Counted from the first letter of the stretch, positions 3,318-28,973 are shown. The stretch: 32,000 bases of DNA from Ktedonobacterales bacterium (GCA_030167145.1 CP126532.1:1260001-1292000); one strand, 5' to 3'. A program made the numbers and translations. The notes: generated by a model not told the origin, from the sequence alone.

Positions 3318-3358
3318 GATGGTGGTATGCTGTGCCAGAATGGAGGAGGGGTATAGCT

Positions 3359-3652
3359 ATGAGCACAGCCGTTATCAACGACGCTCTGCGCGAACAAATC
3401 GTCATCATCCTGCGGCGACATGGCGTGCTCCATGCTGGAATCTTCGGCTCTTTCGCGCGTGGAGCAGCGAATGACAGCAGCGACATTGATCTATTGATAG
3501 AGTTCCCACCGGGTAAAACGCTCTTTGATCTAGAGGCTCTGGCACTGGATCTCGAAGGTGTGGTAGGGCGGAAGGTTGATCTAATTACCTATCATGCGCT
3601 CAATCCGCACTTGCGCGAGCGCGTACTGCGCGAGCAGGTGGCGCTTATATGA
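3359..3652 (+). CDS. mntA: MntA-type nucleotidyltransferase antitoxin (type VII TA)
   Basis: Minimal nucleotidyltransferase motifs GIFGSFARG (GSxxRG) and SDIDLLIEF (DxD). GGAGGAGGGG lies upstream of the ATG at 3359. The stop overlaps the next gene's start (ATGA at 3649-3652). Confidence 0.85.
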   Translation: MSTAVINDALREQIVIILRRHGVLHAGIFGSFARGAANDSSDIDLLIEFPPGKTLFDLEALALDLEGVVGRKVDLITYHALNPHLRERVLREQVALI

Positions 3653-4005
3653 GCCAGCGAGCGCCGCGAATCATAGTAGAAGAACTACTGGAGAACATTC
3701 AGGTCATCCGTGAATACACTGAACACCTATCAGCCGATGCGTTTTTCGCCCAGCGTATGGTACAAGACGCAGTGGTGCGGAGGCTAGAGATACTCGGCGA
3801 AGCGGCAAACCAACTGCCAGTTGAGTGGAAGGATCAACACGCGGAGGTTCCCTGGCGGATTATCACTGGGATGCGTAACCGCCTGATCCACGGATATTTC
3901 TCCATTGACCTGAGTCTCGTATGGGGTACGATTACGCGCGATTTGCCGCCGCTGGAACAACAACTCAGGCAATTCGCGCAACAGGAGCCGCCCGAAGAAG
4001 CATAG
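3649..4005 (+). CDS. hepT: HepT-type HEPN (DUF86) toxin (type VII TA)
   Basis: The HEPN R-x4-H motif is present as RNRLIHGYF. Size is ~118 aa. It is translationally coupled to the upstream MNT gene, which is the canonical MntA-HepT order. Confidence 0.85.
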   Translation: MSQRAPRIIVEELLENIQVIREYTEHLSADAFFAQRMVQDAVVRRLEILGEAANQLPVEWKDQHAEVPWRIITGMRNRLIHGYFSIDLSLVWGTITRDLPPLEQQLRQFAQQEPPEEA

Positions 4006-4060
4006 CACAAAGCCCCTTACGGATGATGCTTCTTTGAGCATCCGCAAGAGGCTTTTGTGC
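4005..4060 (+). terminator. Long imperfect stem-loop immediately after hepT (terminator-like)
   Basis: GCACAAAGCC...GGCTTTTGTGC forms the outer stem. It encloses the inner stem CGGATG..CATCCG and begins at the hepT stop codon. There is no clean U-tract. Confidence 0.4.
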
Positions 4061-4274
4061 GGGCGATTGCGCTCCCGAACGCCGCGCGACACCACCACTC
4101 CACCACACCGCACATGTCGCCGACGCAACACCACCACACCGCATCCACCACGGTCTCGCAATCACTGGTTGAAGTATAGGCGATGAGGCTGTCAGACAGG
4201 TGACAACCGGACCCTTCTTTCTGACAAATTGTTCAGTTAACGGCGGGACATCGGCGCATAGTGCGTGCATATGC

Positions 4275-5259: not shown

Positions 5260-6480
5260 TTACGGCCAGACTGACGATGCCTTGATGAACGGACTGGCAG
5301 AGGTCAATACGCCGTTTTTGACTTGCAGGAACTCGAAGTCGCTAATGCCGCCGTGCTGCGTAGCGGACCAGGTGAGCGTTGGACCAAAGCCGGTGTCGTA
5401 GCTGGTGAAGTCCTGGTTCAGCGCGGTGCGGAGGCTGTCGCGCGTGAGGTTTTGGCCCGCGTGGTTCAGCGCGTCCACTAGCAGCTTGGCGTTGATGTAG
5501 CCATAGAACTTGTAGGCGCTGAAGACGGTATCGCCTGTCGTCGCGGCGAGATACTGCTGGCCGACGGGGGTGTTGATGTCGGAGTAGCCGCTGACGTAGA
5601 TGCCCTCACCGGCAGCGCCGAGGAGCTTCGGCCAGGAATTGTCGGCCATGGGATAGTTCGCCAAGTAGCCTAGCGAGGGCTTGTAGCCAAGCTGGGCAGC
5701 GGTGGCGACGAACTTCGCGGTGGGGCCGGGCAGGCCGTTCAGGACGATGAGGTCGGGATTGGCGCTCTTCAGCGTTTGCACCGCCGCCGAGAAGTCGGTC
5801 TGGGTGGCCTTGTAGCCTACCGAGGCGACCAGATTCGCGCCGTATTTCTGGAGCGACTCGGCAAGGGTCTGCTTCTGCTGAAGGCCGAGCACGTCGTCTT
5901 CATAGAGCAGGGCTACGGATTTCGCGTGTAGCGTCTGCGTGGCGTAGTAACCAATGACGTGGCCTTCGTCGCCGTAGTTGGGCTGTGTCATCCACACCCA
6001 GGGCAGCGCGTTACCCTGGTCGTCGGTGAACTTCGCACCGCCGCCAATGGGATCAATGAAGGGAATGCCCTTCGGGTTAGTGTAGGTCTCGGCGACATTC
6101 GCGGCGCCAGAGCCACAGACCTGGAAGAGCGCGAAGGCGTTGTCTTGCTCGAAAAGCTGGCGTACTGCGTCTTTGGTCTTGGTGGAGTCGCCGTTGTCGC
6201 TGACCTGCACCAGTTTGATCTTGCGCCCATGGATGCCGCCAGCGGCGTTGATGGAGTCAATATAGAGTTGATCGCCAGCGAGAATTGGCGCGCAGATGAC
6301 CTTGAGCGGACCGGTGGTGTCAAGCACCGCGCCAATGGTGATCTCATTGTTGGTGACGCCGGGAACCGTCGCGCCTGCCGTGGCGCCGTTGCCACAGGCC
6401 GCCAGCACCAGAAGGGAAACCACAGTCCCCGCAAGCGCCAGCAGCCGCCGTGAAGTTCGGAGATTCGCTAGAAGTCCCAT
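5260..6480 (-). CDS. ABC transporter substrate-binding lipoprotein, Leu/Ile/Val-binding (type 1 PBP) family
   Basis: Signal peptide plus lipobox (LLALAGTVVSLLVLAACGNG). ITIGAVLDTTGPL...INAAGGIHGRKIKLV is typical of LivJ/K-like binding proteins. The start at ATG 6480 (MGLLANLR...) is preferred over the track's 6603. Confidence 0.9.
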   Translation of the reverse strand: MGLLANLRTSRRLLALAGTVVSLLVLAACGNGATAGATVPGVTNNEITIGAVLDTTGPLKVICAPILAGDQLYIDSINAAGGIHGRKIKLVQVSDNGDSTKTKDAVRQLFEQDNAFALFQVCGSGAANVAETYTNPKGIPFIDPIGGGAKFTDDQGNALPWVWMTQPNYGDEGHVIGYYATQTLHAKSVALLYEDDVLGLQQKQTLAESLQKYGANLVASVGYKATQTDFSAAVQTLKSANPDLIVLNGLPGPTAKFVATAAQLGYKPSLGYLANYPMADNSWPKLLGAAGEGIYVSGYSDINTPVGQQYLAATTGDTVFSAYKFYGYINAKLLVDALNHAGQNLTRDSLRTALNQDFTSYDTGFGPTLTWSATQHGGISDFEFLQVKNGVLTSASPFIKASSVWP

Positions 6481-6585
6481 CCAGTATTGCCCCTCTCTCT
6501 GCGAGACGCCACTGTGTTCACAGTAGCTAAATCCGCGCGCGACAGTCGCCACACAAGCCATCGGCCAGGCGTTGCGGCGCGAGAT

Positions 6586-6605
6586 ACATGACAAGTGAGT
6601 CATGT
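6586..6605. promoter_or_regulatory. Operator site 1: ACATGAC-AAGTGA-GTCATGT (putative TetR box)
   Basis: This 7-6-7 inverted repeat lies ~106 bp upstream of the binding-protein start. A minus-strand TTGACA (6636-6641) lies exactly 32 nt upstream of the core. Confidence 0.6.
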
Positions 6606-10948: not shown

Positions 10949-12522
10949 GATTGTCTCCCTTCGGGCTGGCTACTCTGGCTCGGCGTGGGAGGCGGCGTGA
11001 CGCCTGCGATGTAGCGAGCACGCAGGTCTGCTTTGATGACTTTGCCCATCGCGTTGCGCGGCAGAGCGTCGCTGAAGACGACCCGGCGCGGCAACTTGTA
11101 GCGCGCAAGCTTGCCGTCGCAGAACGCGAGCACATCTTCCGCCCCGAGGCTGCCCGGCACGCGCGGCACGACCACCGCCACGCCGACCTCGCCCCATTTG
11201 GCGTCTGGCTGCGCGATGATCGCGGCTTCAGCGATGCCGGGGTGCGTGGCCAGCAGGCCTTCGACTTCAGCGGGATAGACATTTTCGCCGCCGGAGATGT
11301 ACATGTCCTTCTTGCGTCCGACAATGGCGTAATAGCCCTCGTCATCGCGGGTCACGAGGTCGCCGGTGTGCCACCAGCCGTCGCGGAATACCTCCGCCGT
11401 GGCCTCAGGCCGCCGCCAGTAGCCAGAGCAGACATGCGGACCAGCCAGCGCCAGCTCGCCAACCGCGCCGGGGGCCACGTCGCGGCCCGCGTCATCTACG
11501 ATGCGCGCCCAGGAGTGGAAGACGGGCCGGCCAACTGAGCCAGCTTTGCGAACGGCGTCTTCGGGGGCGAGACTGAAGCAGTTGACGCCTACCTCCGTCA
11601 GCCCGTAGCCCTGGCGAAAGACGAGACCGCGCGCGGCGTAGCGTTCGATGAGTGGCAATGGGCACGACGAGCCGCCTGTCACACAGAAGCGCACCGAGGA
11701 GAAATCGGTGGTGGCGAAGGTGGGATGCTCCATGAGCGACTGGAAGACGGTGGGCACGGCGAAGACGATGGTGCAGTGCTCAACGGCGATGGCGCGCAAC
11801 ACCACATCTGGCACAGCCGAGGGCAGCAGGACCACCGTGCCACCGCAGTGGTAGAGCGGGGTGGTCAGCACGTTGAGGCCGCCCGCGTGAAAGAATGGCG
11901 CGAAGGTCGGCGTGATATCGGTTTCCGCCAGCCCCCAACTGACCTGCGTGTTGATTGCGTTCCAGGTGAGCATGCGGTGCGAGAGCATCGCGCCTTTGGG
12001 GATGCCAGTGGTGCCGGAGGTGTACAGGATCAGCGCGATTTCTTCGCCATCGGCGCAGGCAAAGGGACGTGCTCGCGCGGCCAGTTCCGCATGCGCGCCG
12101 GGAAAAGCGCCAGCCGCGTAGAGCAGCGGCGGCTGAGCGGAGACCGGCAATGCGCCACGTGCCGCTTCGGCAAGCTGATGATAGGCGGCGTCGTGCAGCA
12201 GCAGGCGCGGCTCGCAATCGGTGAGAATCGTGGCTAGTTCCGGGGGTGTCAGCCGCCAGTTGAGCGGCACGAAGATCGCGCCGAGCAGCGCGCAGGCGAA
12301 GAAGGCGTCCAGATATTCCGGCGAGTTCGCGGCGAGCATCGCTACACGGTCGCCCTGGCGTATGCCATAGCGTTCGGCGAGCAGCGCGGCCAGCGCCCGC
12401 GCACGCAGATTCAGCGTGCGATAGGTCAGTCGCGCGCCGGTCGCCACATCCACTATGCCGATTTTGTCAGGCGTTAGTTGCTCGCGGCGGACGAGCCATT
12501 CGCCGACTCCGAGGAAAGACAT
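10945..12522 (-). CDS. AMP-dependent acyl-CoA synthetase/ligase (ANL superfamily)
   Basis: ANL core motifs: LYTSGTTGIPKGAML, GYGLTE, WWHTGDLV, GRKKDMYISGGENVYPAEVE, and the C-terminal PRNAMGKVIK. The N-terminus MSFLGVGEWLVRR is typical. The start overlaps the upstream gene by 49 nt. Confidence 0.9.
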   Translation of the reverse strand: MSFLGVGEWLVRREQLTPDKIGIVDVATGARLTYRTLNLRARALAALLAERYGIRQGDRVAMLAANSPEYLDAFFACALLGAIFVPLNWRLTPPELATILTDCEPRLLLHDAAYHQLAEAARGALPVSAQPPLLYAAGAFPGAHAELAARARPFACADGEEIALILYTSGTTGIPKGAMLSHRMLTWNAINTQVSWGLAETDITPTFAPFFHAGGLNVLTTPLYHCGGTVVLLPSAVPDVVLRAIAVEHCTIVFAVPTVFQSLMEHPTFATTDFSSVRFCVTGGSSCPLPLIERYAARGLVFRQGYGLTEVGVNCFSLAPEDAVRKAGSVGRPVFHSWARIVDDAGRDVAPGAVGELALAGPHVCSGYWRRPEATAEVFRDGWWHTGDLVTRDDEGYYAIVGRKKDMYISGGENVYPAEVEGLLATHPGIAEAAIIAQPDAKWGEVGVAVVVPRVPGSLGAEDVLAFCDGKLARYKLPRRVVFSDALPRNAMGKVIKADLRARYIAGVTPPPTPSQSSQPEGRQS

Positions 12523-13586
12523 GCCGCACCCTCCCCCCAGCGGAGCGCCGTCGCTCCCCAGGTGAAACCCAATCCGGCGCTGGCCAGCACGACCAGATCG
12601 CCGTCGCGCAAGCGCCCCGCAGCGGTGGCTAGCTCTAGCGCCAGCACCTGATCAGGCGCGCCGATATGCCCATAGTCGGAGAGATAGAGCGATTGATCGT
12701 CACGCAGTTCCAGCATGGATAGGATACGCCTGTGCATTGACGGTTTCATATGGTTGATGGCGAGAAATGCGATGTCGGCAAGTGAGCAGCCGCTAGCCGT
12801 GACCGCTTCGCGCACGACATGCACGAAGCGCTGCTCCGAGATGCCATCCAACCCCGCTTTGAGCGCCTGTACATCGGAGACGTGGAAGGAATGCTGGCCC
12901 GCGTTCAGCGTCTGATGCGAGGTTGGCAGCCGGACGCCGCCCGCTGGAATCATGACTAACTCCGACAGTGAACCATCGGTGATGAACGCCGACTCCAGCA
13001 GCACATTGGCGGGATGGTCACGCCGCAGCACCATCGCACTGCCGCCATCGGAGAGATTGTAGAGGAAGCGCGCCGAGGGGTCACGCAAGTTGATCAGATC
13101 GGCGGTGCGGTGGCCGCCGCAGATCAGCACGGTGCGCAGCCGTGGGTCAGCGGTCATCAGGTCGCGAGCAACCTTGAGCGCGAGCACGTTGGTGGTGCAG
13201 AGAGCGACCAGTTCGAAGGCGTAGGCGTTCTTCGCGCCGAGCAGGTGCTGAATGCGGTTGGCGGCAGACCAGACGTAGAAATCTTTATGCATGCTGCCGG
13301 AATAGAGGATCAGGTCAAGCTCCAGCGGACCAACACCGGCCCGCGCCAGCGCACGCTCAGCGGCCCACACGGCCATCGCCGAGGTTTGGTCGGCTGGCCC
13401 AGCGCGGTGTTTGGCGTGGATGCCTAGCTTCTCGCGGACGACCTCCAGTGGCAGGCCGCTCTCCCCCGCCAGATAGGCCGCGTCCTGCACGTGCTCAGGC
13501 AGATAGGTCGCCAGGGCCATCAAACCAATGCGCGGACGGCTTGAAGCCACTGCGGCGCTCGCCTGTGGCACGTGACCTGAATCCAT
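12474..13586 (-). CDS. KAS III (FabH)-like thiolase-fold condensing enzyme / acyltransferase
   Basis: FabH-like layout: candidate nucleophile Cys in FELVALCTTNV, His in FLAINHMKPS, and C-terminal GLGFTWGATALRW. The third triad position appears to be His (DYGHIGAPD) rather than Asn (by-eye alignment). Confidence 0.75.
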   Translation of the reverse strand: MDSGHVPQASAAVASSRPRIGLMALATYLPEHVQDAAYLAGESGLPLEVVREKLGIHAKHRAGPADQTSAMAVWAAERALARAGVGPLELDLILYSGSMHKDFYVWSAANRIQHLLGAKNAYAFELVALCTTNVLALKVARDLMTADPRLRTVLICGGHRTADLINLRDPSARFLYNLSDGGSAMVLRRDHPANVLLESAFITDGSLSELVMIPAGGVRLPTSHQTLNAGQHSFHVSDVQALKAGLDGISEQRFVHVVREAVTASGCSLADIAFLAINHMKPSMHRRILSMLELRDDQSLYLSDYGHIGAPDQVLALELATAAGRLRDGDLVVLASAGLGFTWGATALRWGEGAACLSSESANGSSAASN

Positions 13587-15870: not shown

Positions 15871-17133
15871 ATGCATGTTGAGCGGTTGCGCCTGACCGAT
15901 TTCCGCAATTACCATGAACTGGATTTGCCACTGCCCAGCGGGCTGGTGGTCTTTACGGGGCGGAATGCACAGGGGAAGTCGAACCTGCTCGAAGCGGTGA
16001 TGCTGGCCGCTACCAGCCGTTCGTTCCGCACACTCAACGACCGCGAGGCGGTGCGCTGGGGCGCGCCGGGGCACTTCGCGCGCATAGATACCACGGTTGC
16101 ACGGCGCGGGGATCCGCTACATGTGGAGGTGGTGCTTTCGGATACCGGGCTGCCCCAGGAGGGAACGCCCGCACGCCCCAGCGCCAGCGATGCGGCGCTG
16201 CCACCAGCGCCAGCCGCGCCCTTTCGCAAGCGCATCCGCATCAATGGCGTGCCAAGGCGGGCGATGGATTTGCTGGGGCAAATTACCGTCGTCGTCTTTG
16301 CGCCCACGGACCTGGATCTGGTGATCGGCTCGCCCGCAGAGCGGCGGCGCTTCCTGGATATGACGCTCTGCCAGGTGCATCCGGCATATTGCCGTGCGCT
16401 GAGCCAGTATCAGAAGATCGTGACGCAGCGCGCGGCGCTGCTGCGGCGTATCCGCGACGGCGAGGAGAGTCCGCATGCGCTGAGCTATTGGGATGACCAG
16501 CTTGCGCGGCTGGCCGTGCCGCTGATTCGCGACAGGGCGGCTTTTCTGCGCGCGGCGGGCGATGCCGCTGCCGAGGTATACGCCGCGCTGGCGGCCAACG
16601 AAGATGTGGACGAGGAGACGGCGACGGGCGAGGAGGAGGGGGAAAGCGGGGAAAGCGGGGAAAGCGACAATGGCCTGCGTCTGGTCTATCGGCCTTCATA
16701 TGATGGCGATGTGGCGGGTGACGAGGTGAAGGCGGTGGCGGCGTTTCGGGCGCGGCTGAGCGAAGTGCGGCGGCGCGAGGTGGCGCAGGGGGCGAATGTG
16801 CTGGGGCCGCACCGTGACGACATCGCGTTTCTGGCCGGGGAGATGGATCTCTCGACGTATGGCTCGCGCGGGCAGCAGCGCAGCGTGGCGTTGGCGCTGA
16901 AGCTGGCGGAGTTAGGCTACATCGAGCGTGAGACGGGCGACCAGCCGATCCTGCTGCTGGATGACGTGTTGAGCGAGCTGGATGCCCAGCGCCGCATTGA
17001 TCTGCTCGCCGCTGTACGCACGCTGGATCAGGTGTTGCTGACGACCACGGATGCTGCAACGCTGCCGCCGGAGACGCTGAACTATGCCCATGTCTACCGG
17101 GTGCGGGGTGGGCGAGTCATGCCGGTGACGTGA
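15871..17133 (+). CDS. recF: DNA replication and repair protein RecF
   Basis: MHVERLRLTDFRNY..., Walker A GRNAQGKSNLLEAV, signature SRGQQRSVALALKLAE, Walker B ILLLDDVLSELD. It contains an acidic low-complexity insertion (EEEGESGESGESD). Confidence 0.92.
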   Translation: MHVERLRLTDFRNYHELDLPLPSGLVVFTGRNAQGKSNLLEAVMLAATSRSFRTLNDREAVRWGAPGHFARIDTTVARRGDPLHVEVVLSDTGLPQEGTPARPSASDAALPPAPAAPFRKRIRINGVPRRAMDLLGQITVVVFAPTDLDLVIGSPAERRRFLDMTLCQVHPAYCRALSQYQKIVTQRAALLRRIRDGEESPHALSYWDDQLARLAVPLIRDRAAFLRAAGDAAAEVYAALAANEDVDEETATGEEEGESGESGESDNGLRLVYRPSYDGDVAGDEVKAVAAFRARLSEVRRREVAQGANVLGPHRDDIAFLAGEMDLSTYGSRGQQRSVALALKLAELGYIERETGDQPILLLDDVLSELDAQRRIDLLAAVRTLDQVLLTTTDAATLPPETLNYAHVYRVRGGRVMPVT

Positions 17134-17153: not shown

Positions 17154-17831
17154 TCAAGCGGCTTTGTCGCGAGTGGCGAAGCCTACATATTGATGCAAAT
17201 CGCCGGGGAGCATGCGCTCGGCTTCGTCGGCGAGGTGGTGTTCGTTGCGCCGCAGGAACAGCCAGAAGGCGAGGACGGTTATTGCGCTCAATCCCAGGGC
17301 GATGTAGCCGATGGGTCCGGTGAGCCGGTACATCACGGTGCCCAGCAGATAGCCACCCAGGCCGTCGAGTGCCGCCCAGACCAGCCCACCCAGAGCATTG
17401 AAGGCGAGAAAGCGCCGCCAGGGCATATGATTGGTTCCGGCCAGGAAGGCAGCCCAGATACGTAGCACAGGAACAAAGCGCCCGAAGAAGACGACTTTGC
17501 CGCCGTGCCTGCGGAAGAGATAGATGCCGAGCTTCAGCTTGCGATCATTCAGATGGATCAGACGACCGTAGCGCCGCAGGAGACGGAAGCCGCATTCGCG
17601 CCCAAGCAGATAGCCCAGGTTATCGCCGAGGATTGCGCCCGCTGTCGCCGCCGCAATCACCAGTGGCAGAGTGAGCTGCTGAGTCGCGCCACTATAGATG
17701 GCCGCCGCCAGGAGAATCGTCTCGCCCGGTAGAGGAATCCCCATGCTCTCGATGGCGACCACGACCAGCACAGCCCAATAGCCATAGGTGGTCAGCAGGT
17801 GCGTCAGATCCAGGTTGGCAAAGTGGTCCAT
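17154..17831 (-). CDS. DedA family (SNARE-associated/VTT domain) membrane protein
   Basis: YGYWAVLVVVAIESMGIPLPGETILLAAAIY and FGRFVPVLRIWAAFLAGTNHMPWRRFLAFNALGG are DedA signatures. The ATG at 17831 (MDHFANLD...) is preferred to the track start. Confidence 0.85.
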   Translation of the reverse strand: MDHFANLDLTHLLTTYGYWAVLVVVAIESMGIPLPGETILLAAAIYSGATQQLTLPLVIAAATAGAILGDNLGYLLGRECGFRLLRRYGRLIHLNDRKLKLGIYLFRRHGGKVVFFGRFVPVLRIWAAFLAGTNHMPWRRFLAFNALGGLVWAALDGLGGYLLGTVMYRLTGPIGYIALGLSAITVLAFWLFLRRNEHHLADEAERMLPGDLHQYVGFATRDKAA

Positions 17832-18163
17832 TGGAACAGTACCCCAGGTGTATCCGGTAAAGGGAACGCGGGTGTGAAGCGCAGCACGCCCAACTCGCAC
17901 AGCGGTCGGGTACGACGGCTGCATGGGAAGCATACCGGGGAAACGTCTTCATTCCGTTACGGGAACGTCGCAATATTGTCGCGGCGGATGGATATGAGGG
18001 AAAGGGCTCATTCTACGAGAGGAGCGGCGGGTGCAAGCAGCAGCAGATCTCAGGCGAGTACGTGAAGATTCGCCGTTTGGCCCTTGTCAGATCGCTGAAC
18101 ATCCGCTATCCTACGTCATGGTAACACGGCTGGATTCGTTCCGCGACAGAGGAAGGGGCGGTT

Positions 18164-19792
18164 ATGGCTGGCAATGGCAGGGTCTTCATCAGTCATTCAC
18201 ACGACGACAACGCGCGCTGTGCGCCGCTGCTGGCGGCGATGGAAGCCTGGGGCGTAGACTATTTCTTCGATACGCAGGGGTTGGGCGCCGGGCAGCAACT
18301 CAACGAGACGATACAGCGCGAGATTGCCACTCGCGATGTCTTCTTGCGCGTCTGCACCGCCGCCACACAGCGATCGTTCTGGATGAGCCTGGAAGTCAGC
18401 GCCTTTCGTGGCTTGCAGGCGGAGGACCAGCGCCGGGGACGGGGTAGCCAGCGGCTGCTGATCAATCTGATTCTCGACGGCGACTATACCCGCGAGCCGT
18501 TTGACAACGCAACGCTCTTCATTGACGCCGCCAGCAGGCCGCGCCCGGTGTGGATGGCAGAATTGGGGCGGGCATTGAATGTTTCGGCTCCCAGGGCGCA
18601 ACGTCCGAAGGTTAGCCGTCGCGAGGTGGTGGCATACGGGGCGGCTGCCGCCGTCACCCTCAGTTCCACCGCAGCGGCAGGGGCGCTCTTTCTCGACTAT
18701 CGCAGTCATACGCAAGGTCCGGTGGCGCAATTGCCGAAGTACTTGCCCGGCAAGCCGGTCTGGACGATCCCCAACGCCAGCCCGAAGAAGGATATACCAA
18801 CGTTGCCCGTGGTCGGTGGTAATACGCTCTACCTGTTGAGCGTGGCGGATGTGACCGCCTACGATATTGGGCATGTCACCAATGGCACGCCCAAGAAGCT
18901 CTGGAGCCAGACCATCACGCCGAAGCAAACCATCGTCTCGCCGGCGGTGTATGGAAGTGTGCTGTATCTGGGTATAGATTCGACGCTGTACGCGCTCAAT
19001 GCCCACAATGGCACGAAGATTTGGACCGTTGACCTGCCTGCAGATGATAACGGGATAGATTCGGGAGCGCTGTTAGTGAACGGCGTGATCTACATCTTCT
19101 CTCAGACGGGCCGCCTCTATACCTTCAGGGCTAAAGATGGCTCGCAGGTGTGGAATGATGTTGTGGATGCGACGGCATACTTACTCGACCACGCTTCTGG
19201 CCCGGCGGTGGATGGGGACAGTGTGTTCATCGGCTCACTGGATCATAACATCTATGCGCTGAATGCCAAAGACGGCTCGCAACGCTGGAAGGTGTTGACG
19301 CGCGGCCCCGTCATCTCGACACCAGCGGTGGTCAACGGCACTGTCTATATTGGCTCTGGTGACAATTACGTCTATGCCCTGAACACCAAAGACGGCTCGG
19401 TCAGGTGGAAGTATTTGACGGGTGAAGCGGTGAATTCAAGCCCAGCCGTGGTGGACGGTGTCGTCTACGTTGCCTCTGACGACCACTATCTCTACACGCT
19501 CGATGCCGAGACTGGCAAGCCGTACTGGCGCGCGCCTATCGGTGACCTCGATGCCTCAACGGGCATCATCGAAAAGGGCGGCCCTGTCACCTGCCAACCG
19601 GCTATCGCGGGCGATGCCGTTTGCGTGATGGACGATCTAAATTTCGTCGTTCGCAGCTACAGCCGCTCCGACGGCGAGTCGCGATGGACTTATGCATCCA
19701 AGAGCGGCTATGAGAACGCGGATCCGTTAGCCGCCAACGGACTTATTCTCTTCGGCTCCGGCGACCAAACCCTCTACGCTTTTGGCGCATAA
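18164..19792 (+). CDS. TIR domain - single TM - PQQ-like beta-propeller protein, paralogue 1
   Basis: The N-terminus GRVFISHSHDD...WGVDYFFDT...GAGQQL...DVFLRVCT...SFWMSLE matches the bacterial TIR (TIR_2-like) pattern. SRR plus the hydrophobic VVAYGAAAAVTLSSTAAAGALFL occupies residues ~151-177. Repeated blades follow, such as NIYALNAKDGSQRWK, YVYALNTKDGSVRWKY and YLYTLDAETGKPYWR. AGAGGAAGGGG lies upstream of the ATG. Confidence 0.8.
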   Translation: MAGNGRVFISHSHDDNARCAPLLAAMEAWGVDYFFDTQGLGAGQQLNETIQREIATRDVFLRVCTAATQRSFWMSLEVSAFRGLQAEDQRRGRGSQRLLINLILDGDYTREPFDNATLFIDAASRPRPVWMAELGRALNVSAPRAQRPKVSRREVVAYGAAAAVTLSSTAAAGALFLDYRSHTQGPVAQLPKYLPGKPVWTIPNASPKKDIPTLPVVGGNTLYLLSVADVTAYDIGHVTNGTPKKLWSQTITPKQTIVSPAVYGSVLYLGIDSTLYALNAHNGTKIWTVDLPADDNGIDSGALLVNGVIYIFSQTGRLYTFRAKDGSQVWNDVVDATAYLLDHASGPAVDGDSVFIGSLDHNIYALNAKDGSQRWKVLTRGPVISTPAVVNGTVYIGSGDNYVYALNTKDGSVRWKYLTGEAVNSSPAVVDGVVYVASDDHYLYTLDAETGKPYWRAPIGDLDASTGIIEKGGPVTCQPAIAGDAVCVMDDLNFVVRSYSRSDGESRWTYASKSGYENADPLAANGLILFGSGDQTLYAFGA

Positions 19793-19892
19793 GCGCGCCG
19801 AGTCTGGCATGGAAACGACACGCAACTACAGGCTGGCAGGCCGTTCGCGTGGTTGCGAGTGGGCAAGAATACTCTGAAGGGGAGGAATGTGC

Positions 19893-21509
19893 ATGCCTGG
19901 GAACGGCAAGGTGTTCATCAGCCACACACACGAAGATAATGAGCGCTGCGCGCCGCTGCTGGCGGCGCTAGATGCCTGGGGTGTGGAGTACTGGTTTGAT
20001 ACGCAGCAACTCGATGCTGGGCAGCATCTCTCGGACCGCCTGCAACAGGCATTGGCGGAGCATGATGTGCTGCTGCGCATCTGCACGCCCGCCGCGCAAT
20101 CGTCGTACTGGATGATGATGGAGATGAACGCTTTTCGCGGCCTCCAGCTCGAAGATCAGCAGCGCAAGCGCCACAATGCGCGTCTCAGCATCAACCTGAT
20201 TCTGGCCCCAGGTTACGTCGCCAGTGCGGCTGACCGCGCCGACATCGTCATAGACGCGATGAATCAGCCTCGCCAACACACCTTCGCGGAGTTGCGCACG
20301 GCGCTGGGTCTCTCTGCCGCGGCGCGTCCGAAGCGTGGAGTCAGCCGACGTGCGGTGCTGGGCTTGGGTGCGGCTGGTATCATCACGGCGGGCGCGCTGG
20401 CAAGCGGCGGTGTGCTGCTCAAAGATCGCAACGAACAACCGGTTCACAAGCCATATCCCAAGCCGAAGACCATCCCGTTCGACAACCCGCAAACGATGGA
20501 CCCGCGCATCAAGTGGTATTTCAAGGCTGGCGATGATCTGGGCATGGGCCTGGCGCTGGCAAATGGTGCACTTGTTCTCAACACACAAGATGGCTTGTAT
20601 GCGCTCAAGTCTGAGGATGGCTCGATTCTCTGGACGAAACTGCAGATACGGGGCGATGCCAGCAGCATGCCGTGGGTCGCGGGCAATGTGCTCTATGTTG
20701 CCGCCAGTGAGGGGTTCACCGGCGGCACATTGTACGCACTGAAGGCGAGCGACGGATCACAGATTTGGACAGCCCAGATAGCCTCATCCTTCGAGGATTT
20801 GCAAATAGCAGTCGCCACTGACCGCATCTTTATGGTCACCGACGATGGGTCCATCATTGCCTATAGCACCGCCGATGGCTCCAAGCAGTGGCGCAGCGCG
20901 ACCGCGATGGCCAAGGGCGCGCGTGGAGCGCCCGCATCGGACGGCAACGCGGTGTATATCGGCTCGCCAGATGGCAACCTCTATGCACTGAGCGCCGCCG
21001 ATGGCTCACTGCTCTGGCAGCATCAGACCGGTGGTGAGATTGCTGACACGCCAGCCATAGCCGGTGGTGCGGTCTACTTCGGCTCGAAAGATCAGCATAT
21101 GTACGCGCTGAACGCCACCGATGGTTCGCTCAAATGGCGCTATGCGGCGGGAAACGAGGTCAACATAGCCCCAACCGTCGCCAAAGGCGTCGCCTATATT
21201 GGTCTGCTCAATAACCTGAATGCATTCGACGCGAATACTGGCAAGCTCCTCTGGCAGGCGCCCGCAGGTGACCCGAATGGTTTCGAGTTTATTGATAGCG
21301 TGGCGGCGACAGTGCTGGGCGATGCGATCTACGCCGTGTCGGATAACTATCTATATGCCTTCAGCGCAGAGCAGAAGAAGAGCGTCTGGCGCTTCAAGTT
21401 GAATAGCATTCTTTCGCTCGACGCGACGATGGTTGCCACCAGCGATACCCTGTACTTCGGCGGCGCCGATCACGCGCTCTACGCGCTGAATACCACGCTG
21501 CCGCAATAG
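19893..21509 (+). CDS. TIR domain - single TM - PQQ-like beta-propeller protein, paralogue 2
   Basis: GKVFISHTHED...WGVEYWFDT...DVLLRICT...SYWMMME, then SRRAVLGLGAAGIITAGALASGGVLL, then blades (LYALKASDGSQIW, LYALSAADGSLLW, MYALNATDGSLKW). GGAGG (19881-19885) lies 7 nt before the ATG at 19893, which is preferred to 19887. Confidence 0.8.
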   Translation: MPGNGKVFISHTHEDNERCAPLLAALDAWGVEYWFDTQQLDAGQHLSDRLQQALAEHDVLLRICTPAAQSSYWMMMEMNAFRGLQLEDQQRKRHNARLSINLILAPGYVASAADRADIVIDAMNQPRQHTFAELRTALGLSAAARPKRGVSRRAVLGLGAAGIITAGALASGGVLLKDRNEQPVHKPYPKPKTIPFDNPQTMDPRIKWYFKAGDDLGMGLALANGALVLNTQDGLYALKSEDGSILWTKLQIRGDASSMPWVAGNVLYVAASEGFTGGTLYALKASDGSQIWTAQIASSFEDLQIAVATDRIFMVTDDGSIIAYSTADGSKQWRSATAMAKGARGAPASDGNAVYIGSPDGNLYALSAADGSLLWQHQTGGEIADTPAIAGGAVYFGSKDQHMYALNATDGSLKWRYAAGNEVNIAPTVAKGVAYIGLLNNLNAFDANTGKLLWQAPAGDPNGFEFIDSVAATVLGDAIYAVSDNYLYAFSAEQKKSVWRFKLNSILSLDATMVATSDTLYFGGADHALYALNTTLPQ

Positions 21510-21598
21510 AGATGTGGGCAGGCCAGCAGGGTGGATGTTGGTTGAGCGACGGCGCGAGCTTTACTTGTGGCTCATAAGCGATGAATGGGGAGAGTGCC

Positions 21599-23257
21599 AT
21601 GTCTGGCAAGGTCTTTATCAGCCATGCCCGCGAGGATTTCGCGCGCTGTGCGCGTCTGCTGAAGGCGCTGGATACCTGGGGCGTGGATTACTGGTATGAG
21701 ACGATGGAGCATGCGGCGGGCCAGCGGCTCACTGAGCAGGCGCAGATGGCGCTCTCGGAATGTGATGTGTTCCTGCGGATCTGCACGCGCGACACGAAGC
21801 GTTCCTATTGGATGGGTATCGAGGCGGGCAGCTTCCTGAGCTTGCAGGCCGAAGACCATCGCAAAGGGCAGGTAGACCGGCGCAAACTCGTCAATCTCGT
21901 GCTCGACCCCGCCTATGTGCGTGAGCCATTCGACGCCAGCGCCACGGTGATTGACGCGACCAATACGGGATGGGCGGGCTGGGTCAACGAACTGCGCCGC
22001 GCGCTGAGCCTGCCGCCGCTGGTGGATATCGTCGCCGTGGCCCAGGAGATTAATCCGCCGCAGCCGGAGGGCATCAGCCGGCGCAAGGCGATTGGGCTGG
22101 CTGCGGCGGGTGCCGTCGTGCTGGCTGCGGCGGGCGCGGGTGGGCTCGCGCTGCTGAAGCATGGCGGCACTACCACAGCGATTCATACGCCCACAGCCAC
22201 GCCGACACCGCCAAGTAGCGACCCGCATCTGCGCTGGTGGTATCAGACGCCTTCACACGCCAGTGTCACGAAGTTCGCCAATGCCATTGATTCCTCCCTG
22301 GCGGTGGCCAATGGCGTGATCTATACCGCAACGGAGGATGGTGGGGTCTACGCTCTGAGCGCCATTGGACTGCAACTGCTCTGGAGCAAGCCACTCGGCA
22401 TTTCGGTCTCGGCTACGCCGCTGGCGGTCTATAACAATCTTGTTTACGTCCGGGTCAATGGCGGAGATTATACACTCTATGCGCTGGATGCCCAGCACGA
22501 AGGCAATGAGGTCTGGCATCTTAATTACACTGCGACGGGGCCAGCGATTGTAGACGGCGTGCTCTATGCCGGAGGTAATGGCCTAGCTGGTGCGGTCATC
22601 AATGGCTTCGATCCTATGACGGGAAAGTCGCTCTGGGGTGGCGCTACCAATGGCTATCCATCGGGTACACCCGCCGTGGCTAATGGCATTGTCTATATCG
22701 GCACGGACAAAGGGTATGTCCACGCGTTCAGCATAACCACGCCACATAGCGAGATATGGAGCGCGAAAGCGGGTGCGGACGCGATTGCGCAGGGGAAAGA
22801 TGGCGCTATCGTCAACTTGCCAGCAATCGCGAACGGTATTGTGTACATTGGCTCAGAAGATCACAACCTCTATGCGTTGGATGCGCTCACTGGCGCGCAA
22901 CGCTGGAAATATCCTACGGGCGACGAGATATTCTATTCCTCACCGGCTGTGGCCAACGGCATGGTGTATGTCGGCTCCGAAGATCACATGATCTATGCGC
23001 TGGACGCGAAGACGGGGACGAAGGTTTGGAGCTATGAGACGAAGGGAAAGGTTGCCTCGTCACCCGCAGTCGTCGGCGCTATGCTCTATATTGGCTCTAG
23101 CGATAGGTCTGTCTATGTGCTGGATGCCAAAACTGGGTCGCTGCTCCACAAATATGCCGTGAGTGGGTCGGTGGTGGTGCAACCGATGGTGGTCAATGGC
23201 ATTCTGTATGCGGGCGACGCCAACGGCATTGTGTATGCCTTCGATGCGGCGCAATAG
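21599..23257 (+). CDS. TIR domain - single TM - PQQ-like beta-propeller protein, paralogue 3
   Basis: GKVFISHAREDF...WGVDYWYET...DVFLRICT...SYWMGIE, then SRRKAIGLAAAGAVVLAAAGAGGLALL, then blades (LYALDALTGAQRWKY, IYALDAKTGTKVWSY, VYVLDAKTGSLL). The ATG at 21599 follows GGGGAGAG. Confidence 0.8.
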   Translation: MSGKVFISHAREDFARCARLLKALDTWGVDYWYETMEHAAGQRLTEQAQMALSECDVFLRICTRDTKRSYWMGIEAGSFLSLQAEDHRKGQVDRRKLVNLVLDPAYVREPFDASATVIDATNTGWAGWVNELRRALSLPPLVDIVAVAQEINPPQPEGISRRKAIGLAAAGAVVLAAAGAGGLALLKHGGTTTAIHTPTATPTPPSSDPHLRWWYQTPSHASVTKFANAIDSSLAVANGVIYTATEDGGVYALSAIGLQLLWSKPLGISVSATPLAVYNNLVYVRVNGGDYTLYALDAQHEGNEVWHLNYTATGPAIVDGVLYAGGNGLAGAVINGFDPMTGKSLWGGATNGYPSGTPAVANGIVYIGTDKGYVHAFSITTPHSEIWSAKAGADAIAQGKDGAIVNLPAIANGIVYIGSEDHNLYALDALTGAQRWKYPTGDEIFYSSPAVANGMVYVGSEDHMIYALDAKTGTKVWSYETKGKVASSPAVVGAMLYIGSSDRSVYVLDAKTGSLLHKYAVSGSVVVQPMVVNGILYAGDANGIVYAFDAAQ

Positions 23258-23297: not shown

Positions 23298-24128
23298 ATG
23301 AGCAGGAATATTGAACGGACTGAGGCAAGGCCGCTGGTCTCGGTGATCATCCCGACGATGCGGCGTCCGCTGAGGCTGGCGCGGGCGCTGGCGAGTGTGG
23401 CGGCGCAGACGTACCCACAGGTCGAGGTGGTGGTGGTCAACGATGGTGGTATGCCAGTGGAGGCGGTGATCGAGCGGGCGCGACGGGAGGGTGGACGCCC
23501 GATCACGTATCTGGCGCTGGCGGCGAATATGGGGCCATCGGTGGCGCGGAGCCGGGCGATTGCCGTGGCATCGGGCGAGTTGATCGCGTTGCTGGATGAC
23601 GATGACCGCTTTCGGCCGGGGCATCTGGCGCGGCTGGTGGGGGCGCTGACGGCTGACCCTGGGGCGGCGCTGGCGTATGATGATGCGCTGATCCAGGTGG
23701 AGGAGGGAACGGCGGCGGATGGGGAGCCGCGCGTGGTGGCGGAGTGCCGCTTCGGGCTACCATACGATGAGGCGAAGTTCGATATAGATGACTATATCGT
23801 GACCAGCGCGGCGCTGTTTCGACGCGAGGCGTATGAGGCGGCAGGCGGATTCGATGCGACGCTGCCGTTTCTGGAAGACTGGGATCTGTGGCTGCGGCTG
23901 CGCCAGCGGGGGCGGTTGGTGTATGCGCCGGGGGAGATCGGCGTGGATTATAGCTTACGGGCGGAGGCGGGCGATAACCTGGGCAGCACGTTCGATGCGC
24001 GGAGGCGGGCGGCGCTGGATCTGCTCTCGGCGCGCTATGGGCTGCCGCGGCTGGAACCAAAGACGTTTCTGGATGTGGCGCGCGGGCTGGGGTTCGCGGT
24101 GAGGCCGGTTGCGGTGTCGCGCCGGTAA
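23298..24128 (+). CDS. Family 2 glycosyltransferase
   Basis: VSVIIPTMRRP...AAQTYPQVEVVVVNDGG and the DxD region LLDDDDRF. The ATG at 23298 is preferred, since the track start overlaps the previous gene. Confidence 0.85.
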   Translation: MSRNIERTEARPLVSVIIPTMRRPLRLARALASVAAQTYPQVEVVVVNDGGMPVEAVIERARREGGRPITYLALAANMGPSVARSRAIAVASGELIALLDDDDRFRPGHLARLVGALTADPGAALAYDDALIQVEEGTAADGEPRVVAECRFGLPYDEAKFDIDDYIVTSAALFRREAYEAAGGFDATLPFLEDWDLWLRLRQRGRLVYAPGEIGVDYSLRAEAGDNLGSTFDARRRAALDLLSARYGLPRLEPKTFLDVARGLGFAVRPVAVSRR

Positions 24129-27190: not shown

Positions 27191-27215
27191 GGCAGACAAG
27201 AATGTCTGCCCTACC
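27191..27215 (+). repeat. Hairpin element family 2 (GGCAGACA-AGAA-TGTCTGCC-CTACC)
   Basis: Perfect 8-bp stem. The flanking CTACC(A)GTGGCCG is shared with the 24190 copy. Confidence 0.55.
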
Positions 27216-27322
27216 AGTGGCCGGGATGGCCGTAGATGAGAGTTGCCGATTCTGCCGATTTGCACAGTTGCCGAAATGACCGTGATGGTGAGGGAGATGA
27301 CCGGAATTGGCGCGAATTGTCT

Positions 27323-27348
27323 GGAGATTTTTCGCCGTTTTCGCCGCA
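27323..27348 (+). repeat. 26-nt perfect repeat GGAGATTTTTCGCCGTTTTCGCCGCA, copy 1
   Basis: Identical to 27556-27581, 233 nt away. Both are followed by ...TGCATATG[GC]G and then a 20-nt motif copy, which indicates a degenerate ~235-250 bp tandem duplication. Confidence 0.8.
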
Positions 27349-27555
27349 ATTGCATATGGCGCGCATGGATGGCAGTTGCCGATTCTGCCGATTTTTCGAT
27401 GTGCGCGGAGGGCGAGGTGGGGAATAGAGGAAGCTCTCGGCCTGAAGGCAGTGGGTAATTTCGTGCGAGCGGAGCGACTGAAGTACTGAGTTGCCGATTC
27501 TGCCGTTTTGCGCGGTAGCGTGGGGGTGAACGACGAGAGATGACAGGTGATGACG

Positions 27556-27581
27556 GGAGATTTTTCGCCGTTTTCGCCGCA
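27556..27581 (+). repeat. 26-nt perfect repeat GGAGATTTTTCGCCGTTTTCGCCGCA, copy 2
   Basis: See copy 1. Confidence 0.8.
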
Positions 27582-27824
27582 GATGTGTTTGCATATGCGA
27601 TGTCCTTCCTTGTGTCAGTGGCCGAAGTAGCCGATTTTTACCTGCTGGCAGTTGCCGATTCTGCCGATTTTTTGATTTTGCACAGAGGGCAAGTTGGGTG
27701 GTGGAGCGAGGACGTAGCATGAATGCCACGGGTAATCCCGGCTGGATGGGAGCGTGGAGTTGCCGCAGTTGAGTCATAGGACAGTTGCCGATTCTGCCGA
27801 TTTTTCGACAATGGTAGAATGGTA

Positions 27825-27844
27825 GACAGGAATGCCTGTCCCAC
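27825..27844 (+). repeat. Hairpin element family 2, degenerate copy (GACAGG-AATG-CCTGTC-CCAC)
   Basis: A 6-bp stem, followed by TGATGGCCGAAATGG, which resembles the flank of the 27191 copy. Confidence 0.4.
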
Positions 27845-28188
27845 TGATGGCCGAAATGGTCGTTTTTTTGGTTGTGAAGGTACAGGTGATGCGGGCGGGG
27901 CGCGAGGCTATGGCGGGCATCGTGGGGGTAGCGTAGCATGGGGGCGCAGGGGCGGCGAGTGGACAGGGGCGGGCGAGCGGGGACATTCATGGACAAGCGT
28001 GGACACGCGTTGATGGGGTCTGGCGGGTATCATCGTCACGAAGGCCTCTACCTGAGGCTACGGTTGTGGCTGGGAGGCATATGGTGGCCGAGGAGATATG
28101 TAGCGCGGCGTTTCGAAGGCATCCGGCGCGCGACTACCTGCGTGGTACATCCGCGTGTTCGTTATCGCTGGCGATGGGAATGAAGGGG

Positions 28189-28259: not shown

Positions 28260-28973
28260 TTAGGGCTGGGCAGTTAGTCCGGACATGCCGCCATCCACGA
28301 GGGGATAGTGGCCGCTGTTGACGGCTTTGGTGAGCATGTCGAGGACGGCCTTCGATTGATCCTGGGTGAGGATGCCGCCGCTGGCGGCCTGATTGAGATA
28401 GGTCTGTGCCGCGCCGAGGTAGGCTGCGCTGACGTCAGAGAGCTTGACGTGCTGAGCCTGTGCAATCTGGGCGACCGTCTGATTGTGGCCGAGGTCAGAT
28501 TCGAGTGCGGCGGGGGTGATATGCAGCGCACCGGCGACGGCGTTGACCAGGGCAGTGCGCGCGCCCATGACCTGTTGCAGCACCATCGGATTGCTTTGCA
28601 GCGAGCTGGCGATGGTCTTACTGTTCAGGTTGAGGCAGGGCTGGTTGCCAACCTGCTTCAGCATTTGTTTGAGTTGGTCGCGCTCGACGGCGGTGATCTT
28701 GCCGTCGGCGGCCATCTGATCGAGCACCTTGCCGCTGGCGTCTATGTTGGCCTGTTCGAGCGCGGAGGGGCTGATGTGCAGGTCATTGGCGAGGGTTTGC
28801 TCGTAGATCTGGCAATACTTGCCGGATTGCGAGCCGTCGCTGGCGACGGTGTAGTGGGGCGCGGCCTGGGCTTGCGCGGGGAGCCGTGTGCCCAGCAGAA
28901 AACCGCCAGCAAGCCCGACTAGCAGCAGGCCGCCTGCGGCAAGTGCGATGATGATGCGTTTTCGCGTGTCCAT
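28260..28973 (-). CDS. Hypothetical N-terminally membrane-anchored protein with two internal repeats
   Basis: N-terminal anchor MDTRKRIIIALAAGGLLLVGLAGGFLLG. A repeated module, LHISPSALEQ...ITAVERDQLKQMLKQV / LHITPAALES...LTQDQSKAVLDMLTKAV. No family recognised. Confidence 0.6.
   Translation of the reverse strand: MDTRKRIIIALAAGGLLLVGLAGGFLLGTRLPAQAQAAPHYTVASDGSQSGKYCQIYEQTLANDLHISPSALEQANIDASGKVLDQMAADGKITAVERDQLKQMLKQVGNQPCLNLNSKTIASSLQSNPMVLQQVMGARTALVNAVAGALHITPAALESDLGHNQTVAQIAQAQHVKLSDVSAAYLGAAQTYLNQAASGGILTQDQSKAVLDMLTKAVNSGHYPLVDGGMSGLTAQP

Follow-up and report, generated by a model that had tools for sequence, protein, structure and literature searches.

TIR domains serve immune signalling in bacteria, plants and animals alike, through the cleavage of nicotinamide adenine dinucleotide (NAD+). 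The bacterial TIR domain proteins that cleave NAD+, such as AbTir, BtpA/TcpB, PdTIR, SPARTA TIR-APAZ and ThsB, are soluble cytoplasmic or secreted effectors that work with intracellular cues or partners, and the experimentally characterised bacterial TIR systems sense, to our knowledge, intracellular events. The Toll-like receptors (TLRs) and interleukin-1 receptors (IL-1Rs) of animals are built on a single-pass logic, with a repeat-built ectodomain outside the cell and the TIR domain inside, and members of the IL-1R family act as heteromers of paralogous chains (PMC7075850). Here we describe a cassette of three tandem genes (A, B and C) found in a 32,000-nucleotide stretch of DNA from a Ktedonobacterales soil bacterium (GCA_030167145.1, CP126532.1:1260001-1292000; the whole stretch is referred to below as the window). 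Each product combines an N-terminal TIR domain, a putative internal membrane anchor preceded by a twin-arginine motif and a C-terminal beta-propeller. We know of no earlier account of such a receptor layout among bacterial TIR proteins: no family that combines a TIR domain, a membrane anchor and a PQQ propeller is described in the literature consulted, including a TIR survey and the conflict-system papers of the Aravind group, and public records label its members only as 'TIR domain-containing', 'PQQ-binding-like beta-propeller repeat' or 'BamB'.

The three open reading frames (ORFs) all lie on the plus strand, at 18164-19792 (gene A, 542 amino acids, aa), 19887-21509 (gene B, 540 aa) and 21581-23257 (gene C, 558 aa) when the longest-ORF starts are taken. 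A preliminary description of this DNA had reported three same-strand genes of one shared architecture, and the ORFs were indeed found at these positions, with the domains scoring in each of them. For genes B and C we favour the predicted starts at 19893 (538 aa) and 21599 (552 aa) over those of the longest ORFs, because they give the family-consensus N-termini (M-x-G-N-G-K-V-F) and are preceded by purine-rich ribosome-binding sites. The gene B product is a 100% match to OJF49_001174 of a Ktedonobacterales metagenome-assembled genome (MAG), for which the NCBI call is likewise 538 aa with the start at 19893. With the preferred starts the A-B and B-C spacers measure 100 and 89 nt (94 and 71 nt with the longest ORFs), which reproduces the spacers, and a ribosome-binding site for each gene, given in the preliminary description.

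Distance clustering of 112 full-length sequences yields three groups that coincide with the first, second and third gene of every locus examined, and hidden Markov models (HMMs) of these clades, run over 20 loci, found each complete locus to read A, B, C in this order on one strand. The complete loci are the window, L001 (=L016), L004 (=L012), L005 (=L006), L007, L008, L009, L010, L011, L013 and L014; the ten besides the window all come from Ktedonobacterales or Chloroflexota MAGs. Gene A of the window scores 852 bits with the clade A model and 509 and 402 bits with the other two, and genes B and C are the clade B and clade C paralogues. Overall identity is about 35% between the clades and 44-59% within them. 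Conservation is higher in the TIR domains than in the propellers: TIR identity within a clade is 57-69%, against approximately 50-57% when the paralogues of a single genome are compared in the window and L001 and 37-50% in L005 and L008, whereas the corresponding values for the propellers are 38-54% and about 31%. A, B and C thus appear to be three ancient paralogue (orthologous) groups kept as a cassette, a point overlooked in the preliminary description. An old triplication combined with a kept gene order argues for three non-redundant subunits, or a heteromeric unit, rather than for redundant copies, and A, B and C would accordingly be expected to form a heteromer.

More than 100 clusters of full-length homologues were found, and those with an organism name are all from Ktedonobacterales, the others being metagenome sequences. 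The domain E-values, this number of clusters and the conserved gene order make chance an implausible explanation of the architecture. A scan of one genome per GTDB species, made with a single strict TIR peptide pattern, returned 12 loci, all in Ktedonobacterales/Chloroflexota MAGs but for one MAG labelled uncultured bacterium; since one strict pattern gave only these 12 loci, the absence outside Ktedonobacterales is suggestive, not proven. In a more distant MAG (GCA_027459705.1, locus L021, 5270-9232) an A-like gene of 565 aa, with the Trp of the catalytic-type motif lost and its Glu kept, and a B-like gene of 602 aa are followed by a third gene that encodes a soluble TIR-only protein of 136 aa with its best score for clade C. 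The occurrence of a soluble C-like TIR protein without an ectodomain suggests that the TIR domains act together. In L007 the clade C gene (11704-13354) is split into two overlapping ORFs of 330 and 265 aa, which may reflect a frameshift, a pseudogene or an assembly error.

All three proteins carry a TIR_2 domain (PF13676, approximately residues 7-125) that exceeds the curated gathering score of 28 bits, with 43.8 bits (E = 4e-11) in A, 52.7 bits (E = 8e-14) in B and 39.1 bits (E = 1e-9) in C. The domain occupies 18164-18598 (residues 1-145) in gene A, 19887-20321 in gene B and 21581-22030 in gene C. Every sequence motif that had been quoted for it beforehand is present in the translations, and the earlier proposal of an N-terminal TIR match agrees both with the Pfam scores and with the modelled fold, which is the flavodoxin-like alpha/beta fold with five strands that characterises TIR domains. 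An AlphaFold2 (AF2) model of the gene B TIR domain alone (pLDDT 90, pTM 0.87) was compared with the PDB by Foldseek, and all 50 matches listed are TIR domains, among them SPARTA TIR-APAZ (the highest, TMq 0.73), RPS4, Roq1, MyD88, AbTir, SARM1 and RUN1. With a sequence profile of the TIR region, the first matches are bacterial TIR domains of the AbTir, BtpA and PdTIR type (E 3e-4 to 2e-3). The family glutamate aligns in profile alignment with the E of W-x-x-x-E-L in the AbTir/BtpA-type TIR NADases, the catalytic residue of AbTir, of SARM1 and of the TIR domains of plants. In the window the family glutamate is represented by Glu77 of gene A (in SFWMSLE; 18392-18394), Glu79 of gene B (in SYWMMME; 20121-20123) and Glu81 of gene C (in SYWMGIE; 21821-21823), standing in the W-x-x-x-E context at the start of helix alpha-C, as in NADase-type TIR domains.

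The family counts also bear out the catalytic-type glutamate that had been proposed for these proteins, and they differ between the clades. In clade B both the Trp and the Glu of S-x-W-M-x-x-E are present in 55/55 members, and in clade C the Glu is found in 14/15. Clade A retains the Glu in 27 of its 40 members, the other 13 having Gln, and its Trp is often changed to Ala or Pro (19/40); in the clade A proteins of L005, L007 and L008 the Glu and Trp changes occur together in one protein. One subunit that is always competent for catalysis and another that is sometimes degenerate is the pattern expected of a heteromeric enzyme. We assign the domains to the TIR superfamily and, by motif, putatively to its enzymatic class. 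The trio shares with the bacterial TIR NADases named above the TIR fold, the F-I-S-H motif of strand beta-A and the catalytic-type W-x-x-x-E motif, and in both the activity is expected to depend on TIR-TIR assembly. It differs from them in its predicted membrane anchor and extracytoplasmic propeller and in being a fixed trio of paralogues with no ThsA, Ago or SAVED partner nearby. Membership in Thoeris was considered and rejected, as the best PADLOC match to ThsB has an E-value of 5e-6, the NCBIfam ThcB4 model gives 17-33 bits against a cut-off of 220 and the window has no adjacent ThsA effector (SIR2/SLOG or Macro-TM). SAVED-TIR and retron-TIR were rejected likewise: the matches are weak, cover the TIR core, lie far under the cut-offs and come without partner genes.

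The C-terminal part of about 330 residues matches PQQ_2 (PF13360) with E-values of 5e-45 (A), 1e-45 (B) and 2e-47 (C). The propeller lies at 20502-21506 in gene B (residues 206-540), where it is modelled with eight blades and a pLDDT mostly above 90, at 18749-19789 in gene A (approximately residues 196-542), where eight BamB-like blades are counted by homology to the gene B model, and at 22223-23254 in gene C (approximately residues 215-558). The full-length AF2 model of the gene B protein, built from 101 homologues, has a mean pLDDT of 86.5, with the TIR domain (1-145) and the propeller confidently modelled; compared with known structures it matches BamB with E-values down to 3e-25, and the best TM-score belongs to the designed 8-blade propeller Cake8 (TMt 0.85, rmsd 2.8 Å). 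The PQQ-like/BamB-type propeller that had been recognised earlier is therefore upheld by the PQQ_2 scores of all three proteins and by the model of B. The 8-bladed PQQ_2 fold is shared with BamB, but identity with BamB/YfgL was rejected, with TIGR03300 scores of 139-145 bits against a cut-off of 285. The trio shows no lipobox or lipoprotein signal, and its propeller follows a TIR domain of 150 aa and an internal anchor. Because of the sub-cut-off scores, the lack of a lipoprotein signal and the phylum being regarded as monoderm, the database label 'BamB' should be read as the name of a fold and not of a function. A PQQ-dependent dehydrogenase was also rejected (TIGR03075, 72-85 bits against a cut-off of 480). 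The nearest architectural cousins are the sensors composed of a Ser/Thr kinase, an anchor and a PQQ propeller (AfsK-like; here P0091 and P0096), in which a homologous putative sensor propeller is attached to a cytoplasmic signalling enzyme. Their output is a kinase and not a TIR domain; the segment of P0091 has a Kyte-Doolittle (KD) hydropathy of 2.8 and no S-R-R, and P0096 has no clear membrane segment.

Between the TIR domain and the propeller each protein of the trio has a single Ala/Gly-rich hydrophobic segment (residues 154-177 in A, 156-178 in B and 170-192 in C); throughout the family this segment is conserved, uncharged and of a constant length of 22-24 residues. The h-region consists of 31% Ala, 17% Gly, 14% Leu, 13% Val and 13% Thr plus Ser, and the maxima of its KD hydropathy over 19-residue windows are 1.5-2.0. 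Right before the segment stands S-R-R-x-Φ-Φ, the most invariant feature of the N-terminal half. In gene A it is S151-R152-R153 (18614-18622), followed by the h-region EVVAYGAAAAVTLSSTAAAGALFL (together 18614-18694); in gene B it is S153-R154-R155 (20343-20351), with the h-region AVLGLGAAGIITAGALASGGVLL and then K-D-R (20343-20420), and in gene C it is S166-R167-R168 (22076-22084), with the h-region AIGLAAAGAVVLAAAGAGGLALL (22076-22156). Both arginines are present in 110/110 members of the three clades and Lys was never seen at these places, while other basic positions swap K and R freely (position 8, for example, has K in 58 and R in 48 sequences). The Ser of the motif is found in 94 of the 112 aligned sequences, which comprise the 110 members and two outliers outside the three clades, and the continuation is x-[VAL]-[LIV]-[GA]. 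A Lys or Arg follows the segment within 12 residues in 93% of the members. Propeller homologues without a TIR domain, recovered in the same search, have Leu/Ile/Phe-rich segments with a KD of 2.2-3.3 and no SRR, and sister proteins with the same TIR subfamily and other ectodomains have strongly hydrophobic anchors at the same position, also without SRR.

Experiments have shown that internal membrane segments dependent on twin-arginine translocation (Tat) are defined by a twin-arginine motif, by low hydrophobicity and by positive charges on the C-terminal side, and a Ktedonobacter protein is among the predicted dual Sec-Tat substrates (PMC5449189). By the same criteria the trio has [ST]-R-R-x-Φ-Φ directly before a hydrophobic segment, low hydrophobicity and following basic residues. 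The segment resembles the internal Tat signal-anchors of FecR and the actinobacterial Rieske proteins (Sco2149/QcrA). In FecR, a proven case (PMC12036975, citing Passmore et al., 2020), the N-domain is cytoplasmic, the R-R anchor lies inside the chain and the C-domain is exported by Tat. The trio would have in common with these proteins (PMC12036975, PMC5449189) a cytoplasmic N-terminal part, an internal RR, a weakly hydrophobic segment, positive charges on its flanks and a C-domain that is exported in the folded state; there is no relation in cargo or function, and the Tat dependence that is proven there is predicted here. From the Tat-type motif an N-in/C-out topology is predicted for the trio. 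The preliminary description had seen here a basic stretch followed by an Ala/Gly-rich helix and derived the topology from the positive-inside rule. The segment does exist in all three proteins, but AF2 renders that of gene B as a low-confidence coil; the basic stretch is the invariant S-R-R twin-arginine motif, which had been overlooked, and the numbers of K plus R in the 20 residues before and after the segment (5 versus 3 in A, 5 versus 5 in B and 3 versus 1 in C) do not settle the topology, for which the motif is a stronger signal than the charge counts. Elsewhere in the window a LivK-like substrate-binding protein (Peripla_BP_6; 5260-6603, minus strand) carries S-R-R-L-L-A and then a hydrophobic stretch that ends in a lipobox-like L-A-A-C-G, which looks like a twin-arginine lipoprotein signal and gives a weak hint at RR-type export signals in this organism; the start of this ORF is probably mis-set, since there are about 50 extra residues upstream.

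The reading that we favour, and to which we give roughly an even chance, is that the cassette encodes a hetero-oligomeric, Tat-inserted transmembrane TIR sensor whose TIR domains process NAD+ once the external propellers are engaged. It builds on the observed domains with their TIR and propeller folds, on the motifs, on the A-B-C conservation and on the non-mobile genomic context; Tat dependence, the N-in/C-out topology, heteromer formation, the NADase chemistry, the ligand and the downstream output are inferred. A, B and C would be made together as three paralogous single-pass proteins, each with its catalytic-type TIR domain on the cytoplasmic side, its propeller on the outer face of the cytoplasmic membrane and the internal twin-arginine anchor between the two. 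The propeller would probably be exported by Tat already folded while the N-terminal TIR domain remains inside, resembling the insertion of FecR and of the actinobacterial Rieske proteins. The three divergent propellers (about 31% identical) may bind an extracytoplasmic ligand or partner, most plausibly one that is derived from the cell envelope or foreign, and their engagement or clustering outside would gather the three similar TIR domains (about 50-57% identical) inside into a composite TIR-TIR active site. This site would cleave NAD+, leading to NAD+ depletion or to an ADP-ribose-derived signal. Ktedonobacterales are reported to be filamentous and monoderm. A more demanding version of the same idea, which we hold to be rather doubtful, is one obligate heteromeric receptor in which the propellers are assembled in the cytoplasm and carried together by Tat, the TIR site is asymmetric, with B always catalytic and A sometimes a pseudo-enzyme, and an extracellular event is converted into an NAD-derived second messenger or into a local NAD+ collapse in one compartment of the filament.

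Several observations weigh against a Tat-inserted TIR NADase sensor. The KD values of 1.5-2.0 are marginal for a membrane helix, and in the AF2 model of the gene B protein residues 152-203 have a pLDDT below 50 and form a coil instead of a helix. Sequence similarity to TIR domains of proven NADase activity is weak (E about 3e-4), the Glu is missing from a third of clade A, and no reader of a TIR-made signal is found nearby in the window. A tblastn search for TatA and TatC in the 32-kb window and the related loci gave no match, but these cover a small share of the genome and the result is uninformative. The core-like, envelope-flavoured context, finally, would be compatible with a non-enzymatic scaffold role too. 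Such a role, with the propellers scaffolding cell-wall or glycan assembly in a BamB-like manner and the TIR domains acting as oligomerisation or adaptor modules without NAD+ chemistry, seems to us fairly unlikely. It would accord with the kept order and lineage-core behaviour of the cassette in the related genomes sampled and with neighbours such as recF, the DedA/UptA-like gene, the family 2 glycosyltransferase (GT2) with UbiA, PBP2, two YkuD L,D-transpeptidases, Ddl and PMT_2, and it would also account for the clade A members without the Glu (13/40) or with the Trp replaced (19/40), many animal TIR domains being adaptors only (PMC7075850). A pure adaptor is, however, made unlikely by the retention of the W-x-x-x-E Glu and Trp, which are invariant in clade B (55/55) and nearly so in clade C, and by sequence the closest TIR domains of solved structure are bacterial ones of the NADase type. 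Moreover, since each sub-lineage has its own neighbourhood, none of the envelope genes accompanies the cassette consistently.

The cassette had initially been framed as a defence system, and an anti-phage abortive infection mechanism would be a membrane version of the Thoeris, SPARTA or TIR-STING logic: the propellers would detect phage adsorption or a breach of the envelope, the TIR domains would deplete NAD+ and the infected compartment would die. TIR NADases are recurrent defence effectors, the ThsB, SAVED-TIR and retron-TIR models of PADLOC and NCBIfam do give weak matches, and the fusions of the same TIR subfamily to SF1 helicase, NUDIX and beta-helix domains resemble the expansion of a conflict system; furthermore, the host group is reported to be multicellular, and multicellular bacteria are rich in such systems (PMC7159879). 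We nevertheless consider this mechanism decidedly unlikely, because the locus lies outside any defence island and has no defence neighbours, its position and order are conserved across genomes instead of being patchy or mobile, and the scores are far under the family cut-offs (for ThcB4, 33 bits against 220). The defence framing finds no contextual support in the housekeeping and envelope settings of the cassette, while the other parts of the preliminary interpretation (the architecture, the glutamate, the absence of a partner and the TLR-like analogy) were retained. A slim chance is left for export followed by cleavage, the RR segment being a cleavable Tat signal, the propeller being released, the TIR domain with its signal stub staying behind or being freed, and proteolysis instead of ligand-induced clustering controlling the TIR domain in the manner of the FecR cascade. 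The motif and h-region resemble a Tat signal peptide, A-x-A-like sites are numerous where the h-region ends in Ala-rich sequence, FecR is processed stepwise (PMC12036975) and membrane tethering restrains an amoeba TIR NADase (preprint PMC13142454), but no cleavage motif is conserved above the Ala-rich background and no protease gene is consistently linked across the loci. Least credible, to the point of being nearly dismissed, is a fully soluble protein in which the Ala/Gly-rich stretch serves as a flexible linker in the cytoplasm and the propeller as an intracellular sensor, like the WD40 or TPR parts of STAND/TIR proteins. The low-confidence coil of the AF2 model and the moderate hydrophobicity would suit a linker; a conserved uncharged segment of constant length, the invariant R-R pair, the basic residues after the segment, the strongly hydrophobic anchors at the same position in sisters of the same TIR subfamily and the signal peptides or anchors of related propellers would not.

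If the trio is a Tat-inserted transmembrane sensor, its sensor-outside, TIR-inside logic is that of the TLRs and IL-1Rs, and the TLR-like comparison made earlier is a fair analogy, although not one of orthology. The TIR domain of the trio is N-terminal, which gives a reversed, type II topology, and the ectodomain is a propeller and not made of leucine-rich repeats or immunoglobulin domains; the TIR domain is of the enzymatic bacterial type and not of the Box 2/Box 3 adaptor type, and there is no MyD88-like adaptor. Membership in the TLR/IL-1R family was rejected for the reversed order, the propeller ectodomain and the lack of Box 2 (RDxxPG) in the TIR alignment. If a TIR enzyme is coupled to an extracytoplasmic sensor here, bacterial TIR signalling can operate across a membrane, by the logic of the animal receptors. 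The obligate heteromer, if true, would be the first prokaryotic transmembrane TIR receptor, functionally equivalent to heteromeric IL-1R/TLR signalling and of independent origin in a reportedly multicellular bacterial group. Since one subunit is always of the catalytic type and another is sometimes degenerate, the A-B-C trio would also offer a natural system for the study of heteromeric TIR active sites, and with its internal twin-arginine anchor it would extend the short list of known Tat-inserted bitopic proteins by a non-redox class.

The TIR subfamily extends beyond the cassette. Residues 1-185 of the gene B protein, searched against 1.84 billion cluster representatives, gave 1741 matches at E ≤ 1e-3, 197 at ≤ 1e-10 and 79 at ≤ 1e-30. 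Among the best matches, the TIR domain is combined with the RR-anchor and propeller (in forms of about 540 and 600 aa), with a Sec-type anchor and an ectodomain without an assigned family, with a NosD-like beta-helix, with NUDIX or with an SF1 helicase (about 1000 aa); there are also proteins in which an ectodomain and an anchor precede a C-terminal TIR domain. The fusion partners in apparently related bacteria include SF1 helicase (AAA_11/AAA_12), NUDIX and right-handed beta-helix domains, and the subfamily is a lineage-specific expansion of TIR architectures. Fusions that are 38-57% identical to gene B include P0211, P0224, P0155, P0141, P0164, L018 8001-9164 and L019 8001-9152.

The window is a housekeeping and metabolic setting. 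Besides the cassette it carries genes for EPSP synthase, a Liv-type ABC transporter, an acyl-CoA ligase, KAS III, TetR, RecF, a DedA/UptA-like protein, GT2, GyrA and an FtsX/MacB permease. The GT2 gene (23298-24128, plus strand) begins 40 nt 3' of gene C and may be co-transcribed with the cassette; some members of the lineage keep it at this place (L001 and L010, where a UbiA prenyltransferase comes next), and it does not belong obligatorily to the cassette. The DedA-family protein (17154-17933, minus strand) resembles the undecaprenyl-phosphate transporter UptA below the UptA cut-off. The bracketing of the cassette by DedA and GT2, together with UbiA in L001 and L010, may indicate a lipid-linked glycan theme. 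In another sub-lineage PBP2 lies upstream, and an extracytoplasmic function (ECF) sigma factor, a BNR protein, two YkuD transpeptidases and a NUDIX protein lie downstream; in L004 the upstream genes encode PMT_2, Ddl and a DinG-like helicase. The neighbourhoods of the related loci thus have an envelope flavour, yet no neighbour is constant. No ThsA, SIR2, SLOG or other defence gene was found in the flanks of the cassette within the window, where the expectation of DedA upstream, GT2 downstream and no ThsA/SIR2/SLOG partner proved right, and no ThsA effector was found in the related loci examined. As the A-B-C order is kept in every related genome sampled, the locus behaves as part of the lineage core and not as a mobile defence island.

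The RecF-like ORF (15871-17133, plus strand) scores 288 bits with TIGR00611 against a cut-off of 172 and is separated from gene A in the window by the DedA gene on the opposite strand; recF is also present 5' of the cassette in L001, L011 and L017. This ATPase was considered as a hidden component of the system on account of its PADLOC match to mad3 (E = 1e-29) and rejected, as it passes the RecF equivalog. The match to mad3 of the MADS system extends over the full length of RecF, in a recF...gyrA setting, and is likely a false positive for defence-finder tools. As to expression signals, a weak sigma-70-like promoter match (TTGTCA-17-TATCCT; 18084-18112, plus strand), which agrees with the consensus at 9 of 12 positions and is a consensus match only, sits 52 nt 5' of gene A inside the 230-nt divergent gap between DedA and gene A; 5 sigma-70-like sites were observed, with 2.6±1.7 expected from shuffles. 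A promoter and terminator scan of the A-B and B-C spacers gave nothing above chance, and a conserved RNA or regulatory element in these spacers was rejected, since nothing but the purine-rich ribosome-binding site is conserved when 8-10 loci are aligned.

A link of the cassette to the NUDIX gene near it in L005 and L008 was also rejected, as that gene is unrelated to the TIR-NUDIX fusion P0155 beyond the NUDIX box. Three ORFs of 237-261 aa in the window, which are candidate genes, have no Pfam or PADLOC match (27211-27996 and 28260-28973 on the minus strand, 988-1767 on the plus strand). An IS605-family TnpB (OrfB/Cas12f-like) adjoins or flanks the cassette in L005 (6301-7509) and L013 (530-1252), and in L011 copies of TnpB are found on both sides of it (2984-4141 and 11392-12567).

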